A DNA stretch of 64,000 bases from positions 8,664-72,663 of the IMG/VR virus record IMGVR_UViG_3300025132_000028; one strand, written 5' to 3'. The position numbers and the translations under genes were made by a program. The notes under the pieces are model-generated. The model ran no database searches. It was not told the DNA's origin and was given only the letters and a program-made list of their open reading frames with translations. Positions 6,001-51,378 of this stretch are shown here, one piece after another. Every line of letters begins with the position of its first letter. Positions within the stretch are counted from its first letter, which is position 1. This DNA comes from a virus.

Positions 6001-9000
6001 TCAAATTACACATTTAATGTTGGTTTGGGTGTTAGTGATACTCAAAACTTCTCTCGTGTTATTGGTAAAGAAGAACTACCTACATTTAGTATTGGTTTAC
6101 AACAAGCTTCATTTGATAAAAATGAAAAACTACTTGTAAATAATGCAGAGACTGATTTACAAGTTATCTCTTTTGATGCAACTGCTGAAAATATTAAGTT
6201 TGTTGGTACTGCTCCTATTGTTCCTGATGATATTATCATTGGAGCAAAGAGTGGTAGTCAAGCAAAAGTTGTAGAAATCTTAAGATTTGATGGTGTTTAC
6301 AGTGTAGAAGCTGAAACAGATAAGACTATTGAAGGAACATCTGATTCTGGAAAACTAAATTCAAGTGCTCAAGTTATCCAAGATAATAATTATTATCAGA
6401 ATCTTTCATATACACTTAAAACTGAAGTCTCTTATGAAGATTGTATTGATGCGGTAAACAACAGTGTTCACCCAACAGGTCTTAAAAACTTTGTTGATAG
6501 TCAGTTAGTAACTATTGGTAAGAATGCTGGTATTCAAACTTCTACTACTGTTACTAATGCTACAGTAGATCTTGTTGAAGAAGTAAGAGTTGATGATCAA
6601 TATTATTTTGATATAGGTAGAGATGTTAATATTGCAACTAGAAGTGAGGTAGAACTCAGTAATGAGATTGAATTGGAAAATGCAAAATTATCTGACTATT
6701 TTGAATCTATTACAAACAGAGTTCTAAACATTGACGATATTTCAAGTCAGTTTAGTAATATTAGTAATCCAAACACTTTGGATCTATTTGAAAATATTTA
6801 CAGATATCCATTTAACTTTATCTCAAATAGATTCCTTGTTCAAATTACTAGTGAAGATCGTAGAGATTTCCAAGTTTCTGAAATTACTATTCTTCAAGAT
6901 GGAACTAATACTTACTATGCAGAACCAACCTTTAAGAAATTACATAGTACACCACAAGAAATAGGAACTCTTGAAGGTTCTGTAGACACAGAGAATTCAC
7001 AAGTTCGTTTAAGATTCTTCCCTGCTGATCCATTTGATAAAAATTATGATATTAAAGTTCTAAATCAGTTTTATAATACTGAATCAACACTGACTGGTAT
7101 TGGTACCACTGCGTTTGGTTTTGCTGCTCTAATGGGTTCTGATGCTGAAATTGGACCTTCTACATCTAAATCTTTTGTTTCTGTTGCAGCAACAAACTTT
7201 GATTATCTACATTCTCAAGTTGAAGTAGAAACTGTATCTTCTGGTCAAAAAGAGACCATGTTTGTTGAACTGAAAGCAATTCATGATGGAAATGATAGTT
7301 ATATGTCTGAATATAATATCATTCTTTCTGATGGTTCTTTTGGTGGTACTAACGCAGGTGCATTTGGTACATTTGGAACTACTTATGATCCTAGTGGTAA
7401 TAACTTTAGTATTGAATTTTATAATGCTAGACCTTCTGAGTTTGTAAACTTAAAAGCAAGAACATTAGGTTTTGGTAATACTACTGGAACTACTAACAGA
7501 GACTATAGATTCTTAGCAACAGGAATGATTCCTAATAACGAAAGATCTGCTCAGTATTATACTGAATATCAGACTGTTGGTGTTGGATCTACCGCAAACT
7601 TTGCTGGTATTAAGAGTGATATTCAGTCCGTAAACCAGTGTACAATGGTTGTTGGATATGGAAGGACAGTATCTGCCTTCCAGTATATGTTCTTGAATGA
7701 CCAACTTGGTGATTCTCTATACTTCTCGGAATATCCCGTATTATCGGTCGGTAATACGACGGGTCTGGGAACGGTATTTGCCAAATATGATGGTGAAAAG
7801 GCTGTTCTTGTGTTTACACCTGAGGCAGGTATAAATGACAAAATGTTCATGAGAACATTTAATGAAGTCCTTTACTTAGAACTTGAAAGAAATATTGTAA
7901 ATCCATTGGAATATGGAGCAGTTGTTGAAGAAACTTTCAATACTACTTACACAGGTTTGAATTTCAGAAATATCTTTGAATTCCCAATGTTGTGGAATGG
8001 ATATCCAATTTTCTCTAAAACATTTAATCCTTCTAATACTTCTGCACTTAATCTTGCTACTGGTCAATTTACTATTAAAAATCACTTCTTTGCAAGTGGT
8101 CAAGAATTAGAATATCTCCCTGGTGGAACATTTGTTGGTGTTGTCACAGCACCAATGACTCTTGCAAACGGAAATCCTCTACCATCTCCAGTTTACGCAA
8201 TTAAAGATAATGAAGATCAGTTTAGAATCGGTCTCAGCACGGTAGCTGCCTTAGCTGGTATTGGAACTACTTTAGGATCTGTTGGTGCAGGTAATCTTCA
8301 CGAATTTGATTCAACTGGTAAACTATCCAGATCTCTTATTGCGATTGATGGTCTTGTTCAAAAACCACTTACTTGGTCACCAATTACTAGGACTCTAGAG
8401 AATAATACAACTCTTTCTGGTTCTAGTCTTGGTCTTGGTAAAACTTCCACATTTATGGCAGTTTCTGGTATTTCATCTATTGTTCTTGGTGATTTATTTG
8501 AGATTAATGATGAATTTGTACTTGTTGAAGCTGTTGGTGTTGGAACAACTACTACTGATATTAATTCTAGTGGTATTGGTACAATTAACTTATGTAAGAT
8601 TCAACGTGGTTCAGTAGGAACAGCAGCATCGTTCCATGCTAATGGTTCAATAATTCAAAAATACACTGGTTCTTATAACTTCTCTAGAAATAATATTTTC
8701 TTCACTGGTGCTCCTAATGGTGGTAAATCTTCTGATGAAGCATCTACAACTGGTATACCAGAAGCAGGATCTAGTTTTAATGGAAGAGTTTATTTGAGAA
8801 AAAATTATGATTCCAATAAAATCTTTGATGATATTTCTGGTCAGTTTACTGGTATTGCAAAAACATTTACTCTTAGATCTGAAGGTGAAGATATAACTGG
8901 TATTGGTAGTGAAGGTGGTTTTGGTATCTTCTTTGTGAACAATATGTTCCAAAAACCACAAACTCCAAATAACTTTAATGCAAACCTATTCATTAGAGAA

Positions 9001-42059: not shown

Positions 42060-42707
42060 ATGAAACTAATTAGAGAAGAAATCGAAAATGTAGAAGTCGT
42101 AACTGAAGAAGTTAACGGTAAAAAGAAACTACATATCGAAGGTGTTTTCCTACAGGGTGAAATCAAGAATCGCAATGGACGTATGTATCCAATGAATGTT
42201 CTTGATAAAGAAGTATCACGTTACAACGAAGGTTTTGTAACGAAAGGTCGTGCACTTGGAGAATTAGGGCATCCTGATGGTCCTGTTGTAAACCTTGATC
42301 GTGTTTCTCATAAGATTACCTCTCTTGTAAAAGAGGGTTCAAACTATATTGGAAAGGCGAGAATACTTGATACTCCCATGGGAAAAATAGCAGCTTCTCT
42401 TTTAGATGAAGGAGTAAAACTAGGTGTTTCATCTCGTGGTATTGGTTCTTTAGTCAAGCAAGAAAGTTGCAGTGTAGTCGGTGATGACTTCATCCTTGCA
42501 ACTGCTGCTGATATAGTAGCAGATCCTTCTGCTCCTGATGCTTTTGTTAATGGAGTAATGGAAGGAAAAGAGTGGGTTTGGGAAGGTGGTTCTATTCGCG
42601 AAGCAGCTGCTGAAAAGGCAAGAATTGCTATCGAGAATGCAGTAACCCAACGAGAATTAGAAGAACAGAAACTCTCAATGTTCAATAATTTTCTCTTAAA
42701 TCTATAA
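42060..42707 (+). CDS. g21: Prohead protease gp21
   Basis: MKLIREE, NRNGR.YP, GELGHP, GVSSRG.GS and D.VADPSAPDA motifs. Confidence 0.97.
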   Translation: MKLIREEIENVEVVTEEVNGKKKLHIEGVFLQGEIKNRNGRMYPMNVLDKEVSRYNEGFVTKGRALGELGHPDGPVVNLDRVSHKITSLVKEGSNYIGKARILDTPMGKIAASLLDEGVKLGVSSRGIGSLVKQESCSVVGDDFILATAADIVADPSAPDAFVNGVMEGKEWVWEGGSIREAAAEKARIAIENAVTQRELEEQKLSMFNNFLLNL

Positions 42708-42711
42708 ACTC

Positions 42712-42719
42712 TATAAATA
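42712..42719 (+). promoter_or_regulatory. T4-type late promoter TATAAATA upstream of g22
   Basis: Exact consensus in the intergenic gap. Confidence 0.75.
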
Positions 42720-42772
42720 AGTATAGATTAAAACAATTTTGTAACAATTTTGTTTTTGTCGGAGAGTAAACA

Positions 42773-43870
42773 ATGTCCGTTGGTAACCAATTAAAAGAAA
42801 TGGCAGAAAGCGTAGTAACCAAAGGGGCACAATCTGCAGAACCTATGCAGAAGACCCCCAATTATGTCCCAGGTCAGGCATCTGTAGAAGATCTTGGCGG
42901 GCCATCCCCAGAAAATTACAAACCAGATGATGATTCAGCTAAACTGAAGACTCCATCTGCTGTTGTCGCAAAACCACCAGGAAAACCAGGTGCTAAGGCA
43001 GATTCTATGCCAAAAGCTCCTGATTATGCACCTGGTAAAGGTGGCGCTGACAGTTACAGCACTGGTAGTGGTAAAGCAAAGACTAAGGTTGAAGAGACCG
43101 AAGTTGAAGGTGATGTAGTTGAAGAAGAAAAAATCGAAACTACTGGAGATATTAATATCGATGTCACCGACGACATTAATGCAATGTTTAATGGTGAAGA
43201 ACTCTCCGAGGAATTCAAAGGTAAAGCAGCAACAATTTTTGAAGCTGCTGTTCGTGCTAAAGTTAACGAACTTGCAGAGTCTATCGAAAAGCAGTATGCA
43301 GATGCAGCTGCTGAAGAAGTCACTGAGTTCAAGACTGAACTAACAGAAAGAATTGACAGCTACCTTGAGTACGTTGCCAATGAATGGTTCAGTTCTAATC
43401 AACTTGCAGTTGAGCACGGACTCAAAACAGAAATGACTGAATCATTCCTTAAAGGAATGAAAGGTCTATTTGAAGATCATTATGTATCCATCCCTGAAGA
43501 TAAATATGATGTACTTGAGGCTTTAAGCGTCAAGTTAGATGAAATGGAAACAAAACTCAACGAGCAGATTGAAGCTAACGTCACACTTCACTCAAAACTA
43601 TCTGAGTCTACTAAGGCTGAGATCGTAAGTGAAATATCCCGTGGTTTAGCTGAGTCTCAAAAAGATAAACTCGCCTCTCTTGCAGAAGGTGTTGAGTTTG
43701 AGAGTGAAAAACAATTTACAGAGAAGTTGAATACTATTAAAGAATCTTATTTCTCTAACGGTACAACTACTCAAATTAGTGATCAGGCAGAGGTACCCTC
43801 ATCGGATAAAGGGGAAACCGCATCTATGTCTGCTTACATCAGAGCACTAGGTAAGTACTCTGGAAAGTGA
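42773..43870 (+). CDS. g22: Prohead scaffold protein gp22
   Basis: LSEEFK.KA.TIFEAA, D.YL.YV..EW, ESF..G.K.LF and IKESYF motifs. Confidence 0.95.
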   Translation: MSVGNQLKEMAESVVTKGAQSAEPMQKTPNYVPGQASVEDLGGPSPENYKPDDDSAKLKTPSAVVAKPPGKPGAKADSMPKAPDYAPGKGGADSYSTGSGKAKTKVEETEVEGDVVEEEKIETTGDINIDVTDDINAMFNGEELSEEFKGKAATIFEAAVRAKVNELAESIEKQYADAAAEEVTEFKTELTERIDSYLEYVANEWFSSNQLAVEHGLKTEMTESFLKGMKGLFEDHYVSIPEDKYDVLEALSVKLDEMETKLNEQIEANVTLHSKLSESTKAEIVSEISRGLAESQKDKLASLAEGVEFESEKQFTEKLNTIKESYFSNGTTTQISDQAEVPSSDKGETASMSAYIRALGKYSGK

Positions 43871-43914
43871 TTTTTATATGATTATACAAACTCAAACATC
43901 TCACATTCTCTAAA

Positions 43915-45345
43915 ATGTTAGGCAATGCCAATTACTTAGAGGAGAAGTGGGCTCCTCTTCTCGACGCTGAAGGCGTTGAGAAAATCTCAGACCCACATAG
44001 AAGAGCAGTTACTGCTGCTATTCTAGAGAACCAAGAAAAAGCACTTAAAGAAGAAGCAGGCTTGCTACAAGAAGCACCTACTTCTGGTTTTGGTGGTGCT
44101 CTTTCAGGTGGTGCAGACTTTAAAGGTGGTGCACTTACTTCTACTGGTTCACCCACCGCAGGTTTCGACCCAGTTTTAATTTCATTGATCAGAAGATCAA
44201 TGCCAAACTTGGTTGCTTATGACCTTGCTGGTGTTCAACCAATGAACGGTCCTACAGGACTTATCTTCGCAATGAGATCTAAGTTCGTTAATGACGACGG
44301 TACACTAGGTAGCGAAGCATTATTCAACGAGCCAGATACAACCTTCTCTGGTTTATCAACCGCTAAGGGACAAACACTTGGTGCAGACTACACTGGTGCT
44401 ACTGATGGTGGCGCTGCTGTTGGTTTCGGTACTACCGAGCAACAAGGTGCTAATCCTGGTCTTCTTACTCTTAATGCTGACGGCAAGAGCTACAACGTAG
44501 GTCAAGCAATGAGCACTGCTGAGGCAGAAGCACTTGGTGATGCTGGTAACGCTTTCCGCGAAATGTCATTCAGCATCGAGAAAGTTGCTGTTCAGGCACG
44601 TTCAAGAGCGCTAAAGGCAGAGTACAGTTTGGAACTAGCACAGGATCTCCGCGCTATTCATGGTTTAGATGCTGAGGCTGAACTCGCAAATATTCTCTCA
44701 ACAGAGATTCTTGCTGAGATCAACCGCGAAGTTATCAGAACCATCTATAAGTCTGCTGAGGCAGGTGCTCAGAACAACGTTGCAACCGCTGGTGCGTTTG
44801 ACTTAGACGTTGACTCCAATGGTAGATGGTCAGTTGAGAAGTTCAAAGGTTTACTTTTCCAAATCGAGAGAGACGCTAACGCGATCGCACAAAGAACTCG
44901 TAGAGGAAAGGGTAACATAATCCTATGTTCTTCTGATGTTGCTTCTGCATTAACAATGGCTGGTGTATTAGATTACACACCTGCACTTAATGCTAACCTT
45001 AACGTTGATGACACTGGTAATACATTTGCTGGTACAATCAATGGTAAGTACAGAGTATTCATCGACCCATTCTCAGGTGGTCAGAACGCTTCTGGCGCTC
45101 AGTACTACGTTGTTGGTTACAAAGGTACTTCACCTTATGATGCTGGATTATTCTACTGTCCTTACGTTCCATTACAGATGGTAAGAGCAGTTGGAGAAAA
45201 CACATTCCAACCAAAAATCGGGTTTAAGACTCGTTACGGTATGGTTTCTAACCCATTTGCTGAAGGCGACAATGCTGGTGCAGGTCGTATCTTCGCTGGT
45301 GTTAACAGATACTATAGACGTGTACGTGTTGACAACTTAATGTAA
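43915..45345 (+). CDS. g23: Major capsid protein gp23
   Basis: KW.PLL, DPVLISLIRRSMP, GVQPM.GPTGLIFAMR, ELAQDL.AIHG and FQP.IGFKTRYG motifs. Confidence 0.99.
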   Translation: MLGNANYLEEKWAPLLDAEGVEKISDPHRRAVTAAILENQEKALKEEAGLLQEAPTSGFGGALSGGADFKGGALTSTGSPTAGFDPVLISLIRRSMPNLVAYDLAGVQPMNGPTGLIFAMRSKFVNDDGTLGSEALFNEPDTTFSGLSTAKGQTLGADYTGATDGGAAVGFGTTEQQGANPGLLTLNADGKSYNVGQAMSTAEAEALGDAGNAFREMSFSIEKVAVQARSRALKAEYSLELAQDLRAIHGLDAEAELANILSTEILAEINREVIRTIYKSAEAGAQNNVATAGAFDLDVDSNGRWSVEKFKGLLFQIERDANAIAQRTRRGKGNIILCSSDVASALTMAGVLDYTPALNANLNVDDTGNTFAGTINGKYRVFIDPFSGGQNASGAQYYVVGYKGTSPYDAGLFYCPYVPLQMVRAVGENTFQPKIGFKTRYGMVSNPFAEGDNAGAGRIFAGVNRYYRRVRVDNLM

Positions 45346-45366
45346 GCGAGATGCTTATATTTTTCC

Positions 45367-45395
45367 AAGAGACTCCTTAGGGGGTCTCTTTTTTT
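45367..45395 (+). terminator. Rho-independent terminator after g23
   Basis: aagagactcc-ttag-ggggtctctt followed by a T-run. Confidence 0.85.
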
Positions 45396-45402
45396 GTCAA
45401 GA

Positions 45403-45432
45403 TCTCCTGACACTAAATAATGTTACAGGAGG
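45403..45432 (+). promoter_or_regulatory. Hairpin sequestering the AGGAGG RBS, with late promoter CTAAATA in its loop
   Basis: tctcctg-aca / tgt-ta-caggagg inverted repeat; CTAAATA at 45413-45419. Confidence 0.6.
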
Positions 45433-45441
45433 CTAAGACAA

Positions 45442-45618
45442 ATGTTACACTTATTAGGTAAAGGAATTCAACCAGAATGGGATGATGAGAAGCATGATAG
45501 AGATGAGGTCTTTGCTTTTCTGTGTTACCGTGGAATTCACTATGCAAAAACTGTTTATATAGATTTTACGATGGAAGGTCCATCTTGGTTTCTAAGAAAT
45601 CCTAGAAAGGGGGAGTAG
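45442..45618 (+). CDS. Small protein (58 aa) with a DUF4278-like LxYRG motif
   Basis: Strong RBS AGGAGG upstream; MLHLLGKG...FLCYRGIHY...PRKGE*; below the ORF-track size cutoff. Confidence 0.65.
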   Translation: MLHLLGKGIQPEWDDEKHDRDEVFAFLCYRGIHYAKTVYIDFTMEGPSWFLRNPRKGE

Positions 45619-45697
45619 GCATTTCTTTTTATTAAGAAATACCCGACTAAGTATAAATTTTTTAGTAAATAGTTATGTGTTTAATTCAAAACAATTC

Positions 45698-45850
45698 ATG
45701 CATAATCTAATACCACGCAGCGAATTAGACTCGTGGCAACACAACAGTAGATCAGACGACGAGACGATCAATGACTACTATGAATGTCTAGTTGAATGCG
45801 ATTCAAGACAAAACGAATGCAAACGAATATGTAGAGAAATTCTACAATAA
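45698..45850 (+). CDS. Small four-Cys protein (50 aa)
   Basis: MHNLIP...DYYECLVECDSRQNECKRICREILQ* (Cx3C-x6-Cx3C), followed by a terminator. Confidence 0.7.
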   Translation: MHNLIPRSELDSWQHNSRSDDETINDYYECLVECDSRQNECKRICREILQ

Positions 45851-45854
45851 ATAC

Positions 45855-45879
45855 AGGGGGTCAAGAGACCTCCTTTTTT
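45855..45879 (+). terminator. Rho-independent terminator
   Basis: agggggtc-aaga-gacctcct followed by a T-run. Confidence 0.8.
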
Positions 45880-45899
45880 ATGTAATGAAATAAAAGACA

Positions 45900-46055
45900 A
45901 TGAAAGTCTTAACTCATCCTCTGACGATCTGTAACCTAATCATAGTAGGGTCTCTCGTCATGATCGAAACATTCCACATAAGATATCACGATAGAGGGTT
46001 GACACAATGTGATGGGTCTGTTATAATGAAAGAGTTGGACGCAACATGGGAGTGA
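45900..46055 (+). CDS. Small hypothetical protein with a hydrophobic N-terminal segment (51 aa)
   Basis: MKVLTHPLTICNLIIVGSLVMIETFH...; its 3' part overlaps the sigma70 promoter. Confidence 0.4.
   Translation: MKVLTHPLTICNLIIVGSLVMIETFHIRYHDRGLTQCDGSVIMKELDATWE
45999..46027 (+). promoter_or_regulatory. Consensus sigma70-type (early/middle) promoter
   Basis: TTGACA-N17-TATAAT with an extended TG; directly upstream of the structured RNA. Confidence 0.85.
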
Positions 46056-46215
46056 CTGAATAAACTTACTGGCAACCGCTAGTTAAGGTGATGAGACACA
46101 GGTGGTGCTGCTACGAAAGTAGAACCGATCAACCAATCGGGTCTCAGGCAATAACGTTTTTACTTCTGTAGTAATGCCCGTTATTTGTTGGTATACAGGA
46201 TTCCAACCTCCCTCC
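46047..46215 (+). ncRNA. Structured RNA, probably the manA RNA motif
   Basis: Nested stems gggag/ctccc, tgagac/gtctca, ctac-GAAA-gtag, ccgat/atcgg, aataacg/cgttatt and gttgg/ccaac. It lies upstream of a phosphomannomutase, the typical manA context in cyanophages. The family assignment is from recall, not a covariance search. Confidence 0.7.
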
Positions 46216-46239
46216 TTTTTTATTATGGTTTGTTTTCGT

Positions 46240-46263
46240 AGGGTGGTATGACCACCCTTTTTT
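46240..46263 (+). terminator. Intrinsic terminator between the manA-like RNA and the PMM start codon
   Basis: agggtggt-atg-accaccct followed by T5. Confidence 0.75.
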
Positions 46264-46269
46264 AATGCT

Positions 46270-46989
46270 ATGAAGAAATTTATTTTTGATGTAGACGGGA
46301 CTTTAACAGAAAGTCGAAAACCTATGGACATGGGGTTCATGGCAGAGTTTATAAAGTTTGAATGTAAATTTGATACCTACTTAGTCACTGGAAGTGATAG
46401 AGATAAAACAGTAGAGCAAGTAGGACTTGATGTTTATAATCGTGCTGTTAGAGTTTTTAATTGTTCTGGAGCAGACATATATGTAAGAGATAAGAATGTT
46501 TATAGATCAAAATGGCAACCACCAAGAAGTTTAGTTAATTTTCTTAGTGATGAATTAGATTACAGCACCTTTCCACATAAAACAGGTAATCATATTGAAC
46601 ATAGACCTGGTGGAATAAACTTTAGTATTATTGGAAGGGGTGATAATAGTATGGAATATAGGAAAGAATATGTAAAATGGGATATTAATACTGATGAAAG
46701 AATTAGTATTGCAGATAGAATTATAAATGAGTTCCCTTATTTAAATATTCAGATAGGTGGACAAACAGGATTAGATATATCAGATAATGATAAGAGCCAG
46801 ATATTAAAATATTTTAGTCCTTTTGATGAAATACATTTCTTTGGTGATATGATGAAGGAAGGACAGAACGATTATCCTTTAGCAGAGGCACTAAGGGAAT
46901 GGGGCGGTTATCCGCACTGTGTTAAAAACTGGGAGGATACCCGAACCGAACTCAGAAAATATGTGGAACTTGACACACTTATAGTATAG
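46270..46989 (+). CDS. HAD-IIB phosphomannomutase-like protein (eukaryote-type PMM family)
   Basis: FDVDGTLT..R motif I, VTGSD, IE.R.G.INFS..GR, IGGQ..LDI and FFGD....G.ND. Confidence 0.85.
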   Translation: MKKFIFDVDGTLTESRKPMDMGFMAEFIKFECKFDTYLVTGSDRDKTVEQVGLDVYNRAVRVFNCSGADIYVRDKNVYRSKWQPPRSLVNFLSDELDYSTFPHKTGNHIEHRPGGINFSIIGRGDNSMEYRKEYVKWDINTDERISIADRIINEFPYLNIQIGGQTGLDISDNDKSQILKYFSPFDEIHFFGDMMKEGQNDYPLAEALREWGGYPHCVKNWEDTRTELRKYVELDTLIV

Positions 46990-47003
46990 TGCTATACTAA
47001 ATA
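46970..47003 (+). promoter_or_regulatory. sigma70-type promoter overlapping a late promoter
   Basis: TTGACA-N17-TATACT (46970-46998) runs straight into CTAAATA. Confidence 0.7.
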
Positions 47004-47006
47004 ACA

Positions 47007-47083
47007 TTACGAGGACTCGAAAGATCGTAACCCTGCGTAGAAAAATCACCCTTGTCGGGGGTGACATCATCCGCAGGTTTTTT
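47007..47083 (+). ncRNA. Candidate structured 5' leader RNA of the OMP-like gene
   Basis: Stems ttacga/tcgtaa (with an inner tc-GAAA-ga), cctgcg/cgcagg and tcaccc/gggtga, then a T-run. Confidence 0.5.
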
Positions 47084-47110
47084 AGTATCTGCGAGACAAG
47101 AAAAAAACAA

Positions 47111-47467
47111 ATGATCAAATCAACAATCGCTGCAGTAGCAGCATCTCCATTCCTATTCGCTGGTGCAGCCTTTGCTGGTCCATACGTCAATTTGGAAGCA
47201 ACTGGTTCATACCCTGATGGTTCTTATACATCTGGCGGACTAGAAGCAGTAGTTGGATATGAAGGAGAAACACCTAGTGGAATTGGTTGGTATGTATCTG
47301 GTGGTCCTACAGTGACTCACACAGAAACTACTGATGAGTTCGGTGATGTAGAATTCATTGGATACCTTGGTGGTTCTTATGATAAGTTCTACGGTGAAAT
47401 CTCAGGTGTAACTGCAGAAGACGATATCGACTGGGGTGCTAAAGCAGGTGTGAAGTTCACATTCTAA
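47111..47467 (+). CDS. Small outer-membrane beta-barrel-like protein with signal peptide
   Basis: Signal peptide ending AAFA|GPYVN, alternating beta strands and C-terminal GVKFTF (terminal Phe). Confidence 0.8.
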   Translation: MIKSTIAAVAASPFLFAGAAFAGPYVNLEATGSYPDGSYTSGGLEAVVGYEGETPSGIGWYVSGGPTVTHTETTDEFGDVEFIGYLGGSYDKFYGEISGVTAEDDIDWGAKAGVKFTF

Positions 47468-47472
47468 ATTAG

Positions 47473-47501
47473 TAGACAATAATACATCTAGATGTTATAA
47501 T
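47473..47501 (+). promoter_or_regulatory. Putative sigma70-type promoter
   Basis: TAGACA-N17-TATAAT with an extended TG; the spacer contains the palindrome acatctagatgt. Confidence 0.5.
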
Positions 47502-47502
47502 T

Positions 47503-47527
47503 AGGGTGCGACGGCACCCTTTTTTTA
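47503..47527 (+). terminator. Rho-independent terminator
   Basis: agggtgc-gacg-gcaccct followed by T7. Confidence 0.85.
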
Positions 47528-47558
47528 TGTTGTCAGATAAATAAAAATAAAAGGCGAA

Positions 47559-48098
47559 ATGTCTACGAATCGGTTTTACGCGAAAGAAATACAGAATAGG
47601 AATTATTTGTCCCCAGTAGGGTTCAAGTTTGCACTAACAAAATATCCTAAAGTTTCTTTCCTAGCAAATAGAGCAACAATACCAAGTATCCAAGCAGGTA
47701 CTGCTATCCAACCATCCTACCTTAAGGATGTTAATGTTCCTGGTGATAAACTAGTATATGATGATTTCCAATTAACATTCATTGTGGATGAGAATATGGA
47801 AAATTATATGAGTATTCATAATTGGTTAGTTGGATTAACATATCCAGAATCAGTACAACAATTTACTGATCAAATTGCTGGTGATATGAAAAATCAATTT
47901 AGTGAAGGAACTTTACTTATTCTTAATAGTAGTTTCCAAACTCAGACACAGGTTAAATTTAGGGAACTATTCCCAATATCACTAACTCCTCTTGAGTTCT
48001 TAGCTGATGAAACTGAAACAAACTACTTTACAGCAACAGCATCTTTCAAGTATACTATTTACAATATATTCGCAGCGGACGGTAGAACTCCTTTATGA
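47559..48098 (+). CDS. g3: Tail tube terminator / tail completion protein gp3
   Basis: N.LSP.GFKF, PGDKL.Y..F...F.VDE.MENY and FP.SL..L.F motifs; late promoter-like GATAAATA at 47536-47543. Confidence 0.9.
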   Translation: MSTNRFYAKEIQNRNYLSPVGFKFALTKYPKVSFLANRATIPSIQAGTAIQPSYLKDVNVPGDKLVYDDFQLTFIVDENMENYMSIHNWLVGLTYPESVQQFTDQIAGDMKNQFSEGTLLILNSSFQTQTQVKFRELFPISLTPLEFLADETETNYFTATASFKYTIYNIFAADGRTPL

Positions 48099-48523
48099 AT
48101 CTAAGTGACATTGAAAAGATGTGGGAGAAAGACTCTCGTATCGATCCAGATAATTTACATACAGAATCTCAAAATATTCCTTCTTTACATGCGAAGTATC
48201 ATCAACTTCACAATCAATTTGTGCAACTAAAAATTCAGGCAAAGACTAAGTATGATAATGTTTACTTAGAACGTCATGTTTATTACTCAGGAAAGGCAGA
48301 TCCAGAGATCTATGAGAAAGAACCTTTCCCGTATAAAGTTAGAGATAAAGAAGCAATGGACAGATATATGAGGGCAGATGATAAAGTTGCTCTTGCACAA
48401 CAGAAAATATCTCTCTATGAAATGATCATTAAATACCTTGAGGATATTATCAAATGTATCCATAATAGAAGTTATCATATCAATAATTCTATTGAGTGGC
48501 ACAAGTTCCAAGGAGGATTCTAA
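48095..48523 (+). CDS. uvsY: Recombination mediator UvsY
   Basis: W..D..ID..NL..E...IP.LHAKY, YY.GKA and NRSY.I.N.IEW..F motifs. Confidence 0.92.
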   Translation: MNLSDIEKMWEKDSRIDPDNLHTESQNIPSLHAKYHQLHNQFVQLKIQAKTKYDNVYLERHVYYSGKADPEIYEKEPFPYKVRDKEAMDRYMRADDKVALAQQKISLYEMIIKYLEDIIKCIHNRSYHINNSIEWHKFQGGF

Positions 48524-49428
48524 TGGCAACAAGTTTAGTCACTGGTGGTGCAGGATTTATAGGATCTAATCTAGTGGATAAACTCCTTGAAATGGGACAT
48601 AAAGTTATTGTTATTGATAATGAATATTCTGATGCTCATGATCAGTTTTACTATAATGACAAAGCATATTATGTGAAACAAGATATTTGTAGTTATCAAC
48701 GCACTAGAATTTTTTATCATGATGTAGATTATGTGTTTCATATTGCAGCAGAAGCACGTATTCAACCCGCTGTTGAAAATCCCCTTAATGCAGTTAGAAT
48801 CAATGCTCTCGGTACAGCAACTGTTCTTCAGTGTGCTCGTGAAGCAGGTGTTAAAAAAGTAATGTATTCTTCTACGTCTTCTGCATATGGTCTTGCCAAT
48901 GAATCACCTAATGTAGAAACACAACCTAATGACTGTTTGAATCCATACTCAGTCTCTAAAGTTGCAGGAGAAAATCTATGTAAGATGTATACTGAACTCT
49001 TTGATCTTCCTACTGTCATCTTCAGATACTTTAATGTATATGGTGAGAGACAACCATTAAGAGGACAGTATGTACCAGTGGTTGGTATATTTTTAAGACA
49101 ACTTGCAGCAGGTGAACCACTTACTATTTGTGGTGATGGAGAACAACGTAGGGACTTTGTACATGTCAGTGATGTTTGTAATGCAAATATAATGGCAGCA
49201 ATATCAAATCCTGATGAGGATGCTTATGGTCAGATATATAATATTGGTTGTGGTATAAACTATTCAATCAATCAGATTGCTAATATGATTTCTGATAATC
49301 AGGTTACTCTTCCAGGTCGACCTGGTGAGTGTAGAGTTACCCAAGCAAATACTGATAAGGTAAGAAAAACCTTTGGTTGGAAACCACAAGTAGATCTTGA
49401 AGATTGGATTATTGCTAATGTTTTTTGA
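48523..49428 (+). CDS. NAD-dependent nucleotide-sugar epimerase/dehydratase (GalE/WcaG-like)
   Basis: TGGAGFIGS, YSVSK (YxxxK), RYFNVYG and GDGEQRRDFVHV; ATG overlaps the uvsY stop. Confidence 0.92.
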   Translation: MATSLVTGGAGFIGSNLVDKLLEMGHKVIVIDNEYSDAHDQFYYNDKAYYVKQDICSYQRTRIFYHDVDYVFHIAAEARIQPAVENPLNAVRINALGTATVLQCAREAGVKKVMYSSTSSAYGLANESPNVETQPNDCLNPYSVSKVAGENLCKMYTELFDLPTVIFRYFNVYGERQPLRGQYVPVVGIFLRQLAAGEPLTICGDGEQRRDFVHVSDVCNANIMAAISNPDEDAYGQIYNIGCGINYSINQIANMISDNQVTLPGRPGECRVTQANTDKVRKTFGWKPQVDLEDWIIANVF

Positions 49429-49876
49429 AAAATTGAGTTTGGTTACGGGTGGGTTTGATCCTATCCACAGTGGACATATAAGATATTTTGAGAGAGCAAA
49501 GGATCTTTCAAACTATCTCGTGGTTGGTTTGAATGGAGATCCTTGGTTGAAGAGAAAGAAAGGACAGTATTTTCAATGTTGGACTGAGAGAGCAGAGATT
49601 GTTAGGAATTTAAATATGGTTGATGCTGTCATATCTTGGGAAGATGCAGATGACAGTGCCTGTGGTGCAATTGAAAAGTGTTTGGATATTGCTGATACCG
49701 TTATTTTTTGTAATGGTGGTGATAGAGGTAAATTTAATACACCAGAAACTGATAAGTATGGTGGAGATCCACGAGTACAATTTGAATTTGGTATTGGTGG
49801 TGAAGATAAAATGAATAGTAGTTCATGGATTCTTCATGGGTATTTTGAAAGACAACGTAAGATATTAGGCATATAA
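49418..49876 (+). CDS. Cytidylyltransferase-family (HxGH) nucleotidyltransferase, TagD/RfaE-like
   Basis: TGGFDPIHSGH, NGGDR and K.NSSSWIL motifs. Confidence 0.88.
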   Translation: MFFEKLSLVTGGFDPIHSGHIRYFERAKDLSNYLVVGLNGDPWLKRKKGQYFQCWTERAEIVRNLNMVDAVISWEDADDSACGAIEKCLDIADTVIFCNGGDRGKFNTPETDKYGGDPRVQFEFGIGGEDKMNSSSWILHGYFERQRKILGI

Positions 49877-49911
49877 GACCCATCTAAATAACCATAGATG
49901 ACATGTGGATT

Positions 49912-51378
49912 ATGTCAAACTTGGTTATTAAAAAGAAGAACGAAGTATTTTTAGAGATACTTGCCGAACCACACGTCTGTCATGAACTGTCAGATCATTT
50001 TACTTTTGAGGTTCCTGGCGCAAAGTTCATGCCTCAGTATAGAAGTAAGTACTGGGACGGAAAGATTAGATTGTTTGATTCTAGAAAAAATCAAATTTAC
50101 GTTGGGTTGCTTGATAAACTGGTAAGTTTTTGTAAGAATTATGAATACGAATATGAATTTTTAAATAACAAATACTATGGTACTCCCTTTGAAGTCAATG
50201 AGAATATCTCATATGAGGGTGTCAAGGATTACGTAACATCAATATCAAAATATAAACCTAGAGACTATCAGATTGATGGCATATATGATGCCTTAAAAAA
50301 TAATCGTAAACTATTGATAGCTCCAACTGCTTCAGGAAAGTCGCTGATGATATACGGGATTGTGAGATATTTTGTTGAAAAAAAGCAAAATACTCTGATT
50401 GTTGTTCCCACGACTTCCCTTGTAGAACAAATGTATAAAGACTTTGCGGACTATGGTTGGGATGTTGGTTCATATTGTCACAAGATATATGCAGGAAAAG
50501 AAAGAGAAACAGACTCTCAGGTTATTATAACCACTTGGCAATCAATTTACAAGTTACCTCGTAAATATTTTGAAAGATTTTCTGTAGTGATAGGTGATGA
50601 AGCACACCAGTTTAAAAGTAAATCACTGATATCTATAATGACAAAACTTGGAAATGCCAAGTATCGTTATGGTTTTACAGGAACTCTTGATGGTACACAG
50701 ACTCATAAGTGGGTGTTAGAGGGTCTTTTCGGACCTTCTTATAAAATTATTCGTACTGACGAATTGATGGAGAAAGGTTATCTTGCCAACTTAGATATTA
50801 AAATTATTCTACTCAAGCATCCTCCTAAAAAGTTTGAGGTATTTGAAGATGAAATACAGTATATTATAAAACACGAGCAAAGAAACAACTTCATTAAAAA
50901 CCTGACATTAGATCTAAAAGGTAATACTCTAGTTCTTTTCAATAGAGTGGAAGATCATGGTATGCCTCTTTTTGAATTAATAAATAGTAGTACGAGTAAT
51001 AAAAAAGTCTTCTTCATCTACGGCGGTGTAAATGTAGAATCTCGTGAGGAAGTAAGAGCAATTGCTGAAAAGGAAGATAATGCAATCATAGTTGCTTCTT
51101 ACGGTACATTTTCAACTGGTATAAACATTAAAAAACTGCACAATGTTATCTTTGCTTCTCCTTCTAAATCTAGGATTCGTAACCTTCAAAGCATTGGACG
51201 AGTACTTAGGAGGGGAAAAAATAAATCTATGGCAACCCTATACGACATTGCAGATGACATCAGTTACAAAACAAGAAAAAATTATACACTCAATCATATG
51301 ATTGAAAGAGTTAAGATTTACTCAGAAGAGAATTTTAACTATGATATAGTAAACGTTACTTTAAAAAATAATGGATGA
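49912..51378 (+). CDS. uvsW: DNA helicase UvsW
   Basis: WDGKIRLF, PRDYQ, APTASGKS, DEAH and LQSIGRVLR motifs. Confidence 0.96.
   Translation: MSNLVIKKKNEVFLEILAEPHVCHELSDHFTFEVPGAKFMPQYRSKYWDGKIRLFDSRKNQIYVGLLDKLVSFCKNYEYEYEFLNNKYYGTPFEVNENISYEGVKDYVTSISKYKPRDYQIDGIYDALKNNRKLLIAPTASGKSLMIYGIVRYFVEKKQNTLIVVPTTSLVEQMYKDFADYGWDVGSYCHKIYAGKERETDSQVIITTWQSIYKLPRKYFERFSVVIGDEAHQFKSKSLISIMTKLGNAKYRYGFTGTLDGTQTHKWVLEGLFGPSYKIIRTDELMEKGYLANLDIKIILLKHPPKKFEVFEDEIQYIIKHEQRNNFIKNLTLDLKGNTLVLFNRVEDHGMPLFELINSSTSNKKVFFIYGGVNVESREEVRAIAEKEDNAIIVASYGTFSTGINIKKLHNVIFASPSKSRIRNLQSIGRVLRRGKNKSMATLYDIADDISYKTRKNYTLNHMIERVKIYSEENFNYDIVNVTLKNNG

Follow-up and report, generated by a model that had tools for sequence, protein, structure and literature searches.

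Why does a phage place a consensus promoter, a highly structured RNA and an intrinsic terminator directly in front of a gene for a phosphomannomutase (PMM)-like protein? This arrangement occupies positions 45999-46989 of a 64,000-nucleotide (nt) stretch of viral DNA, here called the window, which corresponds to positions 8,664 to 72,663 of the IMG/VR record IMGVR_UViG_3300025132_000028. The RNA belongs to the manA family, listed since 2010 as an orphan "riboswitch candidate", and an original prediction made from the letters of the window took the locus to be a transcriptional OFF switch for a metabolite, with a visible expression platform. Comparison of the locus with its relatives leads us to lean, with somewhat better than even confidence, toward a different answer: positions 45999-46263 would form an autonomous early gene for the manA RNA, and PMM would be expressed by read-through.

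The RNA was matched over its entire length (model positions 1-192 of 192) by the Rfam covariance model RF01745, with a score of 188.2 bits, where 55.2 is the gathering score, and an E value of 6.8e-51, which settles the identity that the original prediction had surmised. It is the only Rfam family to reach its gathering score in the whole 64-kb window, and the 72.6-kb contig from which the window is taken holds a single copy. The layout comprises a 5' hairpin (46033-46046), a closing helix and seven further helices, and the GGGAG and CUCCC strands of the closing helix fall on the [[[[[ and ]]]]] columns of the Rfam model. To assess the fold, 103 distinct natural manA copies were aligned. In the nested helices, 98.2% of 4727 cells are paired, compared with 30-51% in slid controls, and 22 of 46 pairs have been altered on both sides, a number reached by none of 500 shuffles. 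The closing helix covaries in these relatives, with A-U replaced by U-A in six copies, G-C by A-U in two, and one unpaired cell, and the predicted multistem RNA closed by this helix is thereby confirmed. The family has been catalogued since 2010, and the window RNA is a canonical representative that brings nothing new in sequence or fold.

The window copy is 92-98% identical to the manA copies of P-RSM6, P-SSM3, P-SSM4, MED4-213 and P-HM1; the similarity is confined to the RNA, and the flanks cannot be aligned. Loci with PMM proteins of only 56-75% identity have manA copies that are 86-96% identical to one another. These alignments mark the manA RNA as the conserved part. Two open reading frames (ORFs) overlap the unit, one of 51 amino acids (aa) across the promoter and one of 85 aa in antisense, neither of which is conserved as coding. 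As expected of a free-standing small RNA gene, the unit has its own promoter and its own intrinsic terminator, with no ORF between them. A small frame inside manA (MGVTE-stop, 46046-46063) and a resemblance of GGGAG/CCUCC to a Shine-Dalgarno/anti-Shine-Dalgarno pair were considered and dropped, as nothing spoke for either.

The promoter, a perfect TTGACA-N17-TATAAT in the original prediction, is present letter by letter and is the sole 12/12 site among 26 promoter-like sites in 43000-50000. It ends 5 nt before model position 1, and the predicted start, at about 46033-46035, coincides with the first bases of the manA model. For comparison, we used at least 119 viral contigs sharing a 16-base manA motif, a sample of canonical cyanophage-type copies; together with the window, the RNA has both its ends in 107 records, of which 105 extend 150 nt or more beyond it. 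Among the 102 copies with enough upstream sequence, 100 have a promoter of grade 10/12 or better within 50 nt upstream; the grade is 11/12 in 77 and 12/12 in 18 (at least 11/12 in 95).

On the other side of the RNA, the terminator ends 6 nt before the PMM start codon, as had been predicted, with AATGCT between its T run and the ATG at 46270 (Table 1). The scanned region contains 12 terminator-like sites, compared with 4.1 expected. Of 105 copies, 41 show a T run of five or more in the 12 nt behind manA. The window-type terminator (GGGTGGT..ACCACC) occurs six times on the manA strand in 915 kb of the DNA compared, each time directly behind manA. Promoter, RNA and terminator of the window are far beyond chance. 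Since the promoter scan found no promoter-like site between the manA promoter (46027) and 46602, PMM must be transcribed by read-through.

Table 1. Features of the manA unit and its neighbors in the window; helix and loop numbers are inferred by taking the Rfam helices in order, set so that L6 is the GNRA loop.
Feature	Position	Strand	Details
Sigma-70-type (early-type) promoter	45999-46027	+	TTGACA, 17-nt spacer, TGnTATAAT; 12/12, TG before -10
-35 element	45999-46004	+	TTGACA
-10 element	46022-46027	+	TATAAT
manA RNA, full length	46033-46217	+	Rfam RF01745, covariance model
Closing helix, 5' strand	46048-46052	+	GGGAG
Loop L5	46101-46107	+	GGUGGUG; UGGU complementary to ACCA of 46130-46136
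Loop L6	46115-46118	+	GNRA tetraloop, GAAA
Loop L7	46130-46136	+	CAACCAA; partner of L5
Loop segment L8	46166-46170	+	CUGUA; complementary to 46194-46198
Loop segment L9	46194-46198	+	UACAG; partner of L8
Closing helix, 3' strand	46208-46212	+	CUCCC; inside 46206-46213, the proposed antiterminator strand
First U tract	46216-46221	+	UUUUUU; 3 nt after closing helix
Intrinsic terminator	46240-46263	+	8-bp stem (5 G-C pairs), 3-nt loop, U6; -12.6 kcal/mol
Terminator 5' arm	46240-46247	+	AGGGTGGT; followed by loop ATG
Terminator 3' arm	46251-46258	+	ACCACCCT; followed by T run to 46263
PMM-like HAD-family gene	46270-46989	+	239 aa; Pfam PF03332 (eukaryotic-type phosphomannomutase), E 3.8e-22; HAD motif DVDGT
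Prohead protease-like, scaffold-like and capsid-like ORFs	42060-45345		upstream of manA unit

Could this terminator be switched? The proposed antiterminator forms between ACCTCCCT (46206-46213) and 46240-46247, which pair in seven of eight positions around a central U.U; this complementarity, claimed in the original prediction, is real, and closing helix plus terminator on the one hand and antiterminator on the other are, on paper, mutually exclusive. In an OFF riboswitch built on these pairings, manA would be the aptamer, and a sugar phosphate or nucleoside diphosphate (NDP) sugar would lock the closing helix, free the terminator and shut off PMM, a gene without another promoter. In a transcript that stops at 46250 and thus lacks the 3' arm of the terminator, the antiterminator is indeed predicted, with pair probabilities of 0.81-0.96. 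However, its energy is -7.3 kcal/mol versus -12.6 kcal/mol for the terminator, and the full transcript is predicted to adopt the Rfam structure plus the terminator (-65.0 kcal/mol), all of these being fold energies that leave out the tertiary contacts of the native manA fold.

The pairing itself also turned out to be commonplace. In the window, the manA tail and the 5' arm of the hairpin behind it give a duplex energy of -10.0 kcal/mol, but 18 of 131 distinct unrelated terminator-like hairpins in the same contigs (13.7%) pair with the window tail as well or better, and 26 reach -9. Such complementarity is at chance level because terminator arms in these phages are G-rich and the manA tail is C/U-rich; in these genomes, with their G-rich terminators, a neat terminator/antiterminator pair that follows a C/U-rich tail counts as weak evidence. 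In truncated transcripts of the 41 copies that have a hairpin and a U tract, the antiterminator was found (mean probability above 0.5) in only eight, six of which carry one homologous terminator family that includes the window's, the others being L072 and L091. It was predicted in none of 20 copies of the commonest hairpin type, which we call hp2. The visible expression platform of the original prediction is not upheld by these numbers.

The remaining PMM loci lead to the same result. Five other loci have PMM orthologs after manA, and conservation of the alternative pairing is largely absent from them: L057 has an unrelated terminator with a duplex energy of -5.5, L020 and L075 carry hp2 (-1.3 and 0.3), and L096 and L019 have no hairpin, the ATG following the closing helix after 11 and 15 nt. 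The six manA-PMM junctions thus represent four architectures. The PMM proteins of L057 and L096 are 96.1% identical, and one locus has a hairpin while the other has none; those of L019 and L020 are 94.8% identical, L019 being without a hairpin and L020 with hp2. Since these near-identical pairs differ by a whole hairpin module, modules between manA and PMM are gained and lost quickly. The PMM homolog of P-TIM68 lies in a packed operon with no manA upstream. Loss of the antiterminator pairing among homologs, which the original prediction itself had listed as grounds for refutation, is thus largely what is observed.

Across the family, what follows the RNA is just as varied, and interchangeable. 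Of the 105 junctions, 50 reach the next gene without any hairpin, hp2 is present in 27 and a plain terminator in 21, and in the remaining 7 ARAGORN places a tRNA gene 8-19 nt after the RNA, with no terminator between. Downstream ORFs were clustered, and one representative per cluster was named by Pfam. The next sizeable ORF encodes gp32 in 23 cases, transaldolase in 13, DUF6561 in 9, ThyX in 7, a 58-aa protein in 6, PMM in 6, Hsp20 in 5, a 2OG-Fe(II) oxygenase in 4 and mannose-6-phosphate isomerase in 2, the rest being singletons. In cultured phages, manA precedes transaldolase (P-RSM6), small hypothetical genes behind pstS (P-SSM3) and gp32 (P-HM2). With gp32, transaldolase, ThyX, Hsp20, PMM and tRNA genes all following manA, no single metabolic theme emerges. 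In its accessible text, the list of downstream genes given by Weinberg et al. 2010 (PMC2864571) matches ours.

Taken together, these results make a metabolite riboswitch quite unlikely. Its best arguments are that the antiterminator is also predicted in the five other copies with the window-type terminator, a terminator found only behind manA; that PMM, mannose-6-phosphate isomerase and transaldolase genes follow some manA copies; and that Weinberg et al. (PMC2864571, accessible text) rated manA a probable riboswitch (table entry 'y'), a verdict that later papers repeat as 'candidate'. These have to be set against a weak antiterminator, chance-level pairing, a competing terminator arm that is not kept across homologs, junctions of which 50 of 105 are free of hairpins and at least seven precede tRNA genes, near-identical PMM genes that differ in hairpin presence, and a heterogeneous gene set, with gp32 the commonest, that does not form one ligand-tied pathway. 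Furthermore, 16 years after the motif was described, the literature we found reports no ligand for manA, in agreement with the accessible text of Weinberg et al. (PMC2864571) and with the original prediction, and manA RNAs fold and assemble ligand-free (bioRxiv 10.64898/2026.07.01.735769).

The 50 hairpin-free copies, in which the next ORF is often only 11-55 nt away across an unstructured A/C-rich spacer, invite another explanation, in which manA is a ligand-free cis-acting 5' leader that stabilizes or localizes its mRNA or boosts its translation, and the window terminator is a leaky attenuator setting the level of PMM. The direct succession of manA and PMM in L096 (11 nt) and L019 (15 nt) fits this explanation, as does the position of nearly all copies on the same strand as, and just upstream of, a gene, which is also noted in the accessible text of Weinberg et al. 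(PMC2864571). It leaves unexplained, however, the copies in which a strong terminator is followed by a fresh promoter-like element, those followed by tRNA genes, and the invariant or covarying loops that make intermolecular contacts, and we regard it as rather unlikely. Four of the six copies with the window-type terminator have, between it and Hsp20, a stretch of about 70 nt that contains TGTTATAAT and an AAGGAG ribosome site; in these loci the terminator closes the RNA unit. The promoter scan of L021 did not call this TGTTATAAT, because a -35 match is missing, and the promoter is a reading of the letters.

The loops bear on how a free manA RNA might assemble. A recent preprint (bioRxiv 10.64898/2026.07.01.735769) reports, in its accessible part, that refolding of RF01745 RNAs without ligand yields discrete closed oligomers in vitro: one manA variant gives a 60-subunit icosahedral-like cage and others give decamers or octamers, all made from pentamers through intermolecular L5-L7' and L8-L9' kissing loops, while a Photobacterium variant uses L5-L7', L3-L8' and an L6 GNRA loop-receptor contact. 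Assembly was obtained at about 3 mg/mL RNA and 10 mM Mg with an annealing step at 50 C. Promoters, neighboring genes and a role in cells are not mentioned in the accessible part. By the inferred numbering, the window displays the loop set of the A0F1 type, namely complementary L5/L7 and L8/L9 and a GNRA L6. In the aligned copies, L5 is unchanged in 102 of 103 and L5-L7 is invariant, and RNAfold gives a GNRA L6 in at least 66 of 103. At the L8-L9 pair C46166-G46198, 91 copies have C-G and 11 have A-U, one further case (L001) being due to an alignment slip; all 11 A-U copies come from one clade, so the switch may be a single event. Covariation of this kind fits an intra- or an intermolecular contact alike, and the accessible text of the preprint places the contact between molecules.

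In the favored reading of 45999-46263 as an RNA gene, host RNA polymerase would start at the consensus sigma-70-type promoter and, judging by the spacing, the first transcribed bases would be the first of the manA fold. The fold of this RNA of about 185 nt, shown by model score and covariation, is the catalogued structure of several helices, with GGGAG/CUCCC closing it. Most transcripts would end at the U tract or at the hairpin terminator (46216-46263), giving an RNA of about 190-230 nt. This free RNA would be the product, and its copies may associate via the L5-L7 and L8-L9 contacts into pentamer-based closed particles; assembly of the window copy, and any assembly in cells, is proposed by analogy with the manA RNAs seen by cryo-EM. 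PMM would be made by those polymerases that pass the terminator, which would act as a constitutive attenuator with fixed read-through and no ligand control.

Several observations weigh against this reading. As manA is simply a 5' mRNA leader in 50 of 105 copies, "free-standing" describes the window locus and not the family. The window-type terminator is found only behind manA, in six of six cases, and all six copies are predicted to form the antiterminator when truncated (0.74-0.85). The paired positions do not vary in sequence among these six, so covariation offers no test of the antiterminator there, and a switch may be confined to this terminator sub-family. With PMM lying 6 nt past the U tract and having no promoter of its own, its expression depends on the terminator, which is where a regulator would act. 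In addition, the preprint (bioRxiv 10.64898/2026.07.01.735769, accessible part) showed manA assembly in vitro only and on its own constructs, and a discrete short transcript is so far a reading of the DNA letters.

Two more elaborate schemes would combine switching with assembly. In the first, a self-sensing attenuator, nascent RNA would be captured by manA oligomers, the closing helix would be stabilized and read-through into PMM would fall as manA accumulates. This joins the shared strand 46206-46213 with the reported self-assembly and would explain why the terminator type travels only with manA, but it is purely inferential and meets the same conservation objections as the riboswitch model; we consider it extremely improbable. 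The second reaches further: the unit would flood infected picocyanobacteria early with manA RNA that forms RNA-only pentamers and closed shells, terminator-less copies would tether mRNAs (gp32, transaldolase, PMM), and read-through in the window sub-family would sense assembly. If true, the phage would possess an RNA organelle and, with it, a self-sensing attenuator; we hold this to be very unlikely.

Sequence resembling manA is present in RNA libraries. Logan contigs from four RNA-library runs of three studies include manA-like contigs (at least 90%) in all four, with summed word depths from 15 to about 1800, pooled over relatives; contigs on the PMM body have depths of about 1-30, also pooled over relatives and unfit for ranking genes. 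Among the contigs listed, none lies over 46238-46273, a cover gap that carries no weight; assembled contigs cannot show transcript ends, strand or level. Several loose contig ends belong to relatives with other junctions, including hp2 and an AAGACC..GGTCTT terminator. We found no paper on transcript ends or function for manA in a search that did not extend to the supplements of Weinberg et al. 2010, the P-HM2 RNA-seq paper and the preprint; in its accessible text, the P-HM2 RNA-seq paper (PMC5082946) gives per-gene values in its supplements only.

The hp2 hairpin (AGACC-UAAGA-UGC-A-ACUC...GAGU-CGG-GCA-GAU-GGUCU, with a variable apical stem) is absent from the window and occurs, for example, in L011 (3487-3545), L033, L020 and L075. 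It occurs 28 times in the loci compared, never more than 40 nt behind manA, and 20 of 27 copies have a U tract. An Rfam search with hp2 returned no family at gathering score nor at E values up to 1. The hairpin has tandem G-A/A-G pairs beside a 3-nt bulge and looks kink-turn-like. The tRNA-followed copies are L002, L022, L037, L068, L100, L111 and L117, the tRNA being Asn, or Asp in L111; Rfam also finds a tRNA behind manA plus hp2 in L013, with the same letters in L036, L046 and L088. This adjacency of manA and tRNA genes resembles that of ROOL and GOLLD. The DUF6561 protein, of about 100 aa, is encoded after manA in L001, L013, L036, L042, L046, L082, L088, L118 and L119 and has a weak Sm-like match (E 0.0004, below the cut-off); an RNA-binding partner is only a thought. 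In the P-HM2 record (L159), GenBank annotates the hypothetical ORFs PHM2_011 and PHM2_012 over manA at 956-1130, just upstream of gp32, and these are probably not genes.

A scan of genome contigs with a degenerate 20-mer gave 35 matches, about the chance expectation. Rfam searches on 14 of the 35 identified full manA in three (L141, L152 and L138), which are short or phage-sized contigs in single-cell or metagenome-assembled genome (MAG) records, and these 14 gave no evidence of a chromosomal host copy. L141 and L137, of 189 kb and 194 kb, are filed with a single-cell genome of Prochlorococcus and a MAG of Synechococcus and contain manA, or its 5' motif next to tRNAs; being as large as a cyanomyovirus genome, they are probably phage DNA in cell records.

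The contig of the window, with a completeness rated at 38%, has the gene order of a T4-like cyanomyovirus around the locus, with gp21, gp22 and gp23 upstream of manA and UvsY- and UvsW-like genes downstream. The manA copy sits upstream of a same-strand gene in the T4-like cyanophage/marine setting of its family. Beyond the capsid-like ORF, the order is an island of short units, a tail-tube-like ORF, and the UvsY- and UvsW-like ORFs. Within 45367-47520, from the capsid to the tail-tube-like gene, terminator-like hairpins (45367, 45855, 46240 and 47503) are interleaved with promoter-like sites (45394, 45999, 46970 and 47473), which makes this stretch a cluster of short units of the early type. 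The last bases of PMM are shared with another strong promoter (TTGACA-17-TATACT, 11/12 with TG; 46970-47110 region). Between it and a cyanophage outer-membrane-protein-like gene (PF24653, 47111-47467) lies a 105-nt leader with three hairpins (z -2.24) that is 73-76% conserved in four marine virus records and directly precedes the gene; an Rfam search of 47004-47110 returned no family at gathering score nor at E values up to 1. At 48496-49876, 1.5 kb downstream of PMM, there are an NAD-dependent epimerase/GDP-mannose-dehydratase-family gene and a cytidylyltransferase-like gene, so that the phage carries several sugar-nucleotide genes. The Rfam search of the 64 kb found no wcaG RNA in the window.

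Before manA in 2026, no natural RNA had been reported to assemble into an icosahedral-like cage in vitro, and, in the accessible text of each, neither the 2010 motif work (PMC2864571) nor the 2026 preprint (bioRxiv 10.64898/2026.07.01.735769) explains how the RNA is made in phages. What our analysis adds is modest: a near-universal private promoter, counts of junction types, hairpins that differ between almost identical PMM genes, covariation in natural copies at a contact seen by cryo-EM, and a manA-specific 3' hairpin outside Rfam. The loop contacts of the cryo-EM structures are invariant or covarying in natural copies, and the emphasis moves from ligand screening toward transcript ends, oligomer state and loop function.

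How, then, does the locus compare with known systems? Terminator-type riboswitches include those for purine and SAM-I. The manA unit resembles them in being a promoter-proximal structured RNA with a terminator arm as a possible second partner for the 3' strand of its closing helix, and differs in having no known ligand, no conserved switching helix and no coherent regulon. ROOL, GOLLD and OLE are large phage-associated structured RNAs that multimerize and often lie next to tRNA genes. Like them, manA is phage-borne, highly structured and without a known ligand, its relatives form homo-oligomeric particles, and some of its copies stand directly before tRNA genes; in contrast, it is shorter than 200 nt and unrelated in sequence, and about half of its copies are mRNA leaders. 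With the self-assembling manA RNAs of the A0F1 type, which use L5-L7' and L8-L9' kissing loops, the window shares the Rfam family, the matching loops and the GNRA L6, whereas assembly was seen for the preprint constructs and is proposed for the window copy, which may or may not be identical to A0F1 or to a decamer former. The closest likeness is to Rfam manA as described by Weinberg et al. 2010 (PMC2864571): the window copy is a full-length match in a T4-like cyanophage setting before a mannose-pathway gene, with no difference in the RNA itself, and its terminator is one of several junction types that lie outside the family model.

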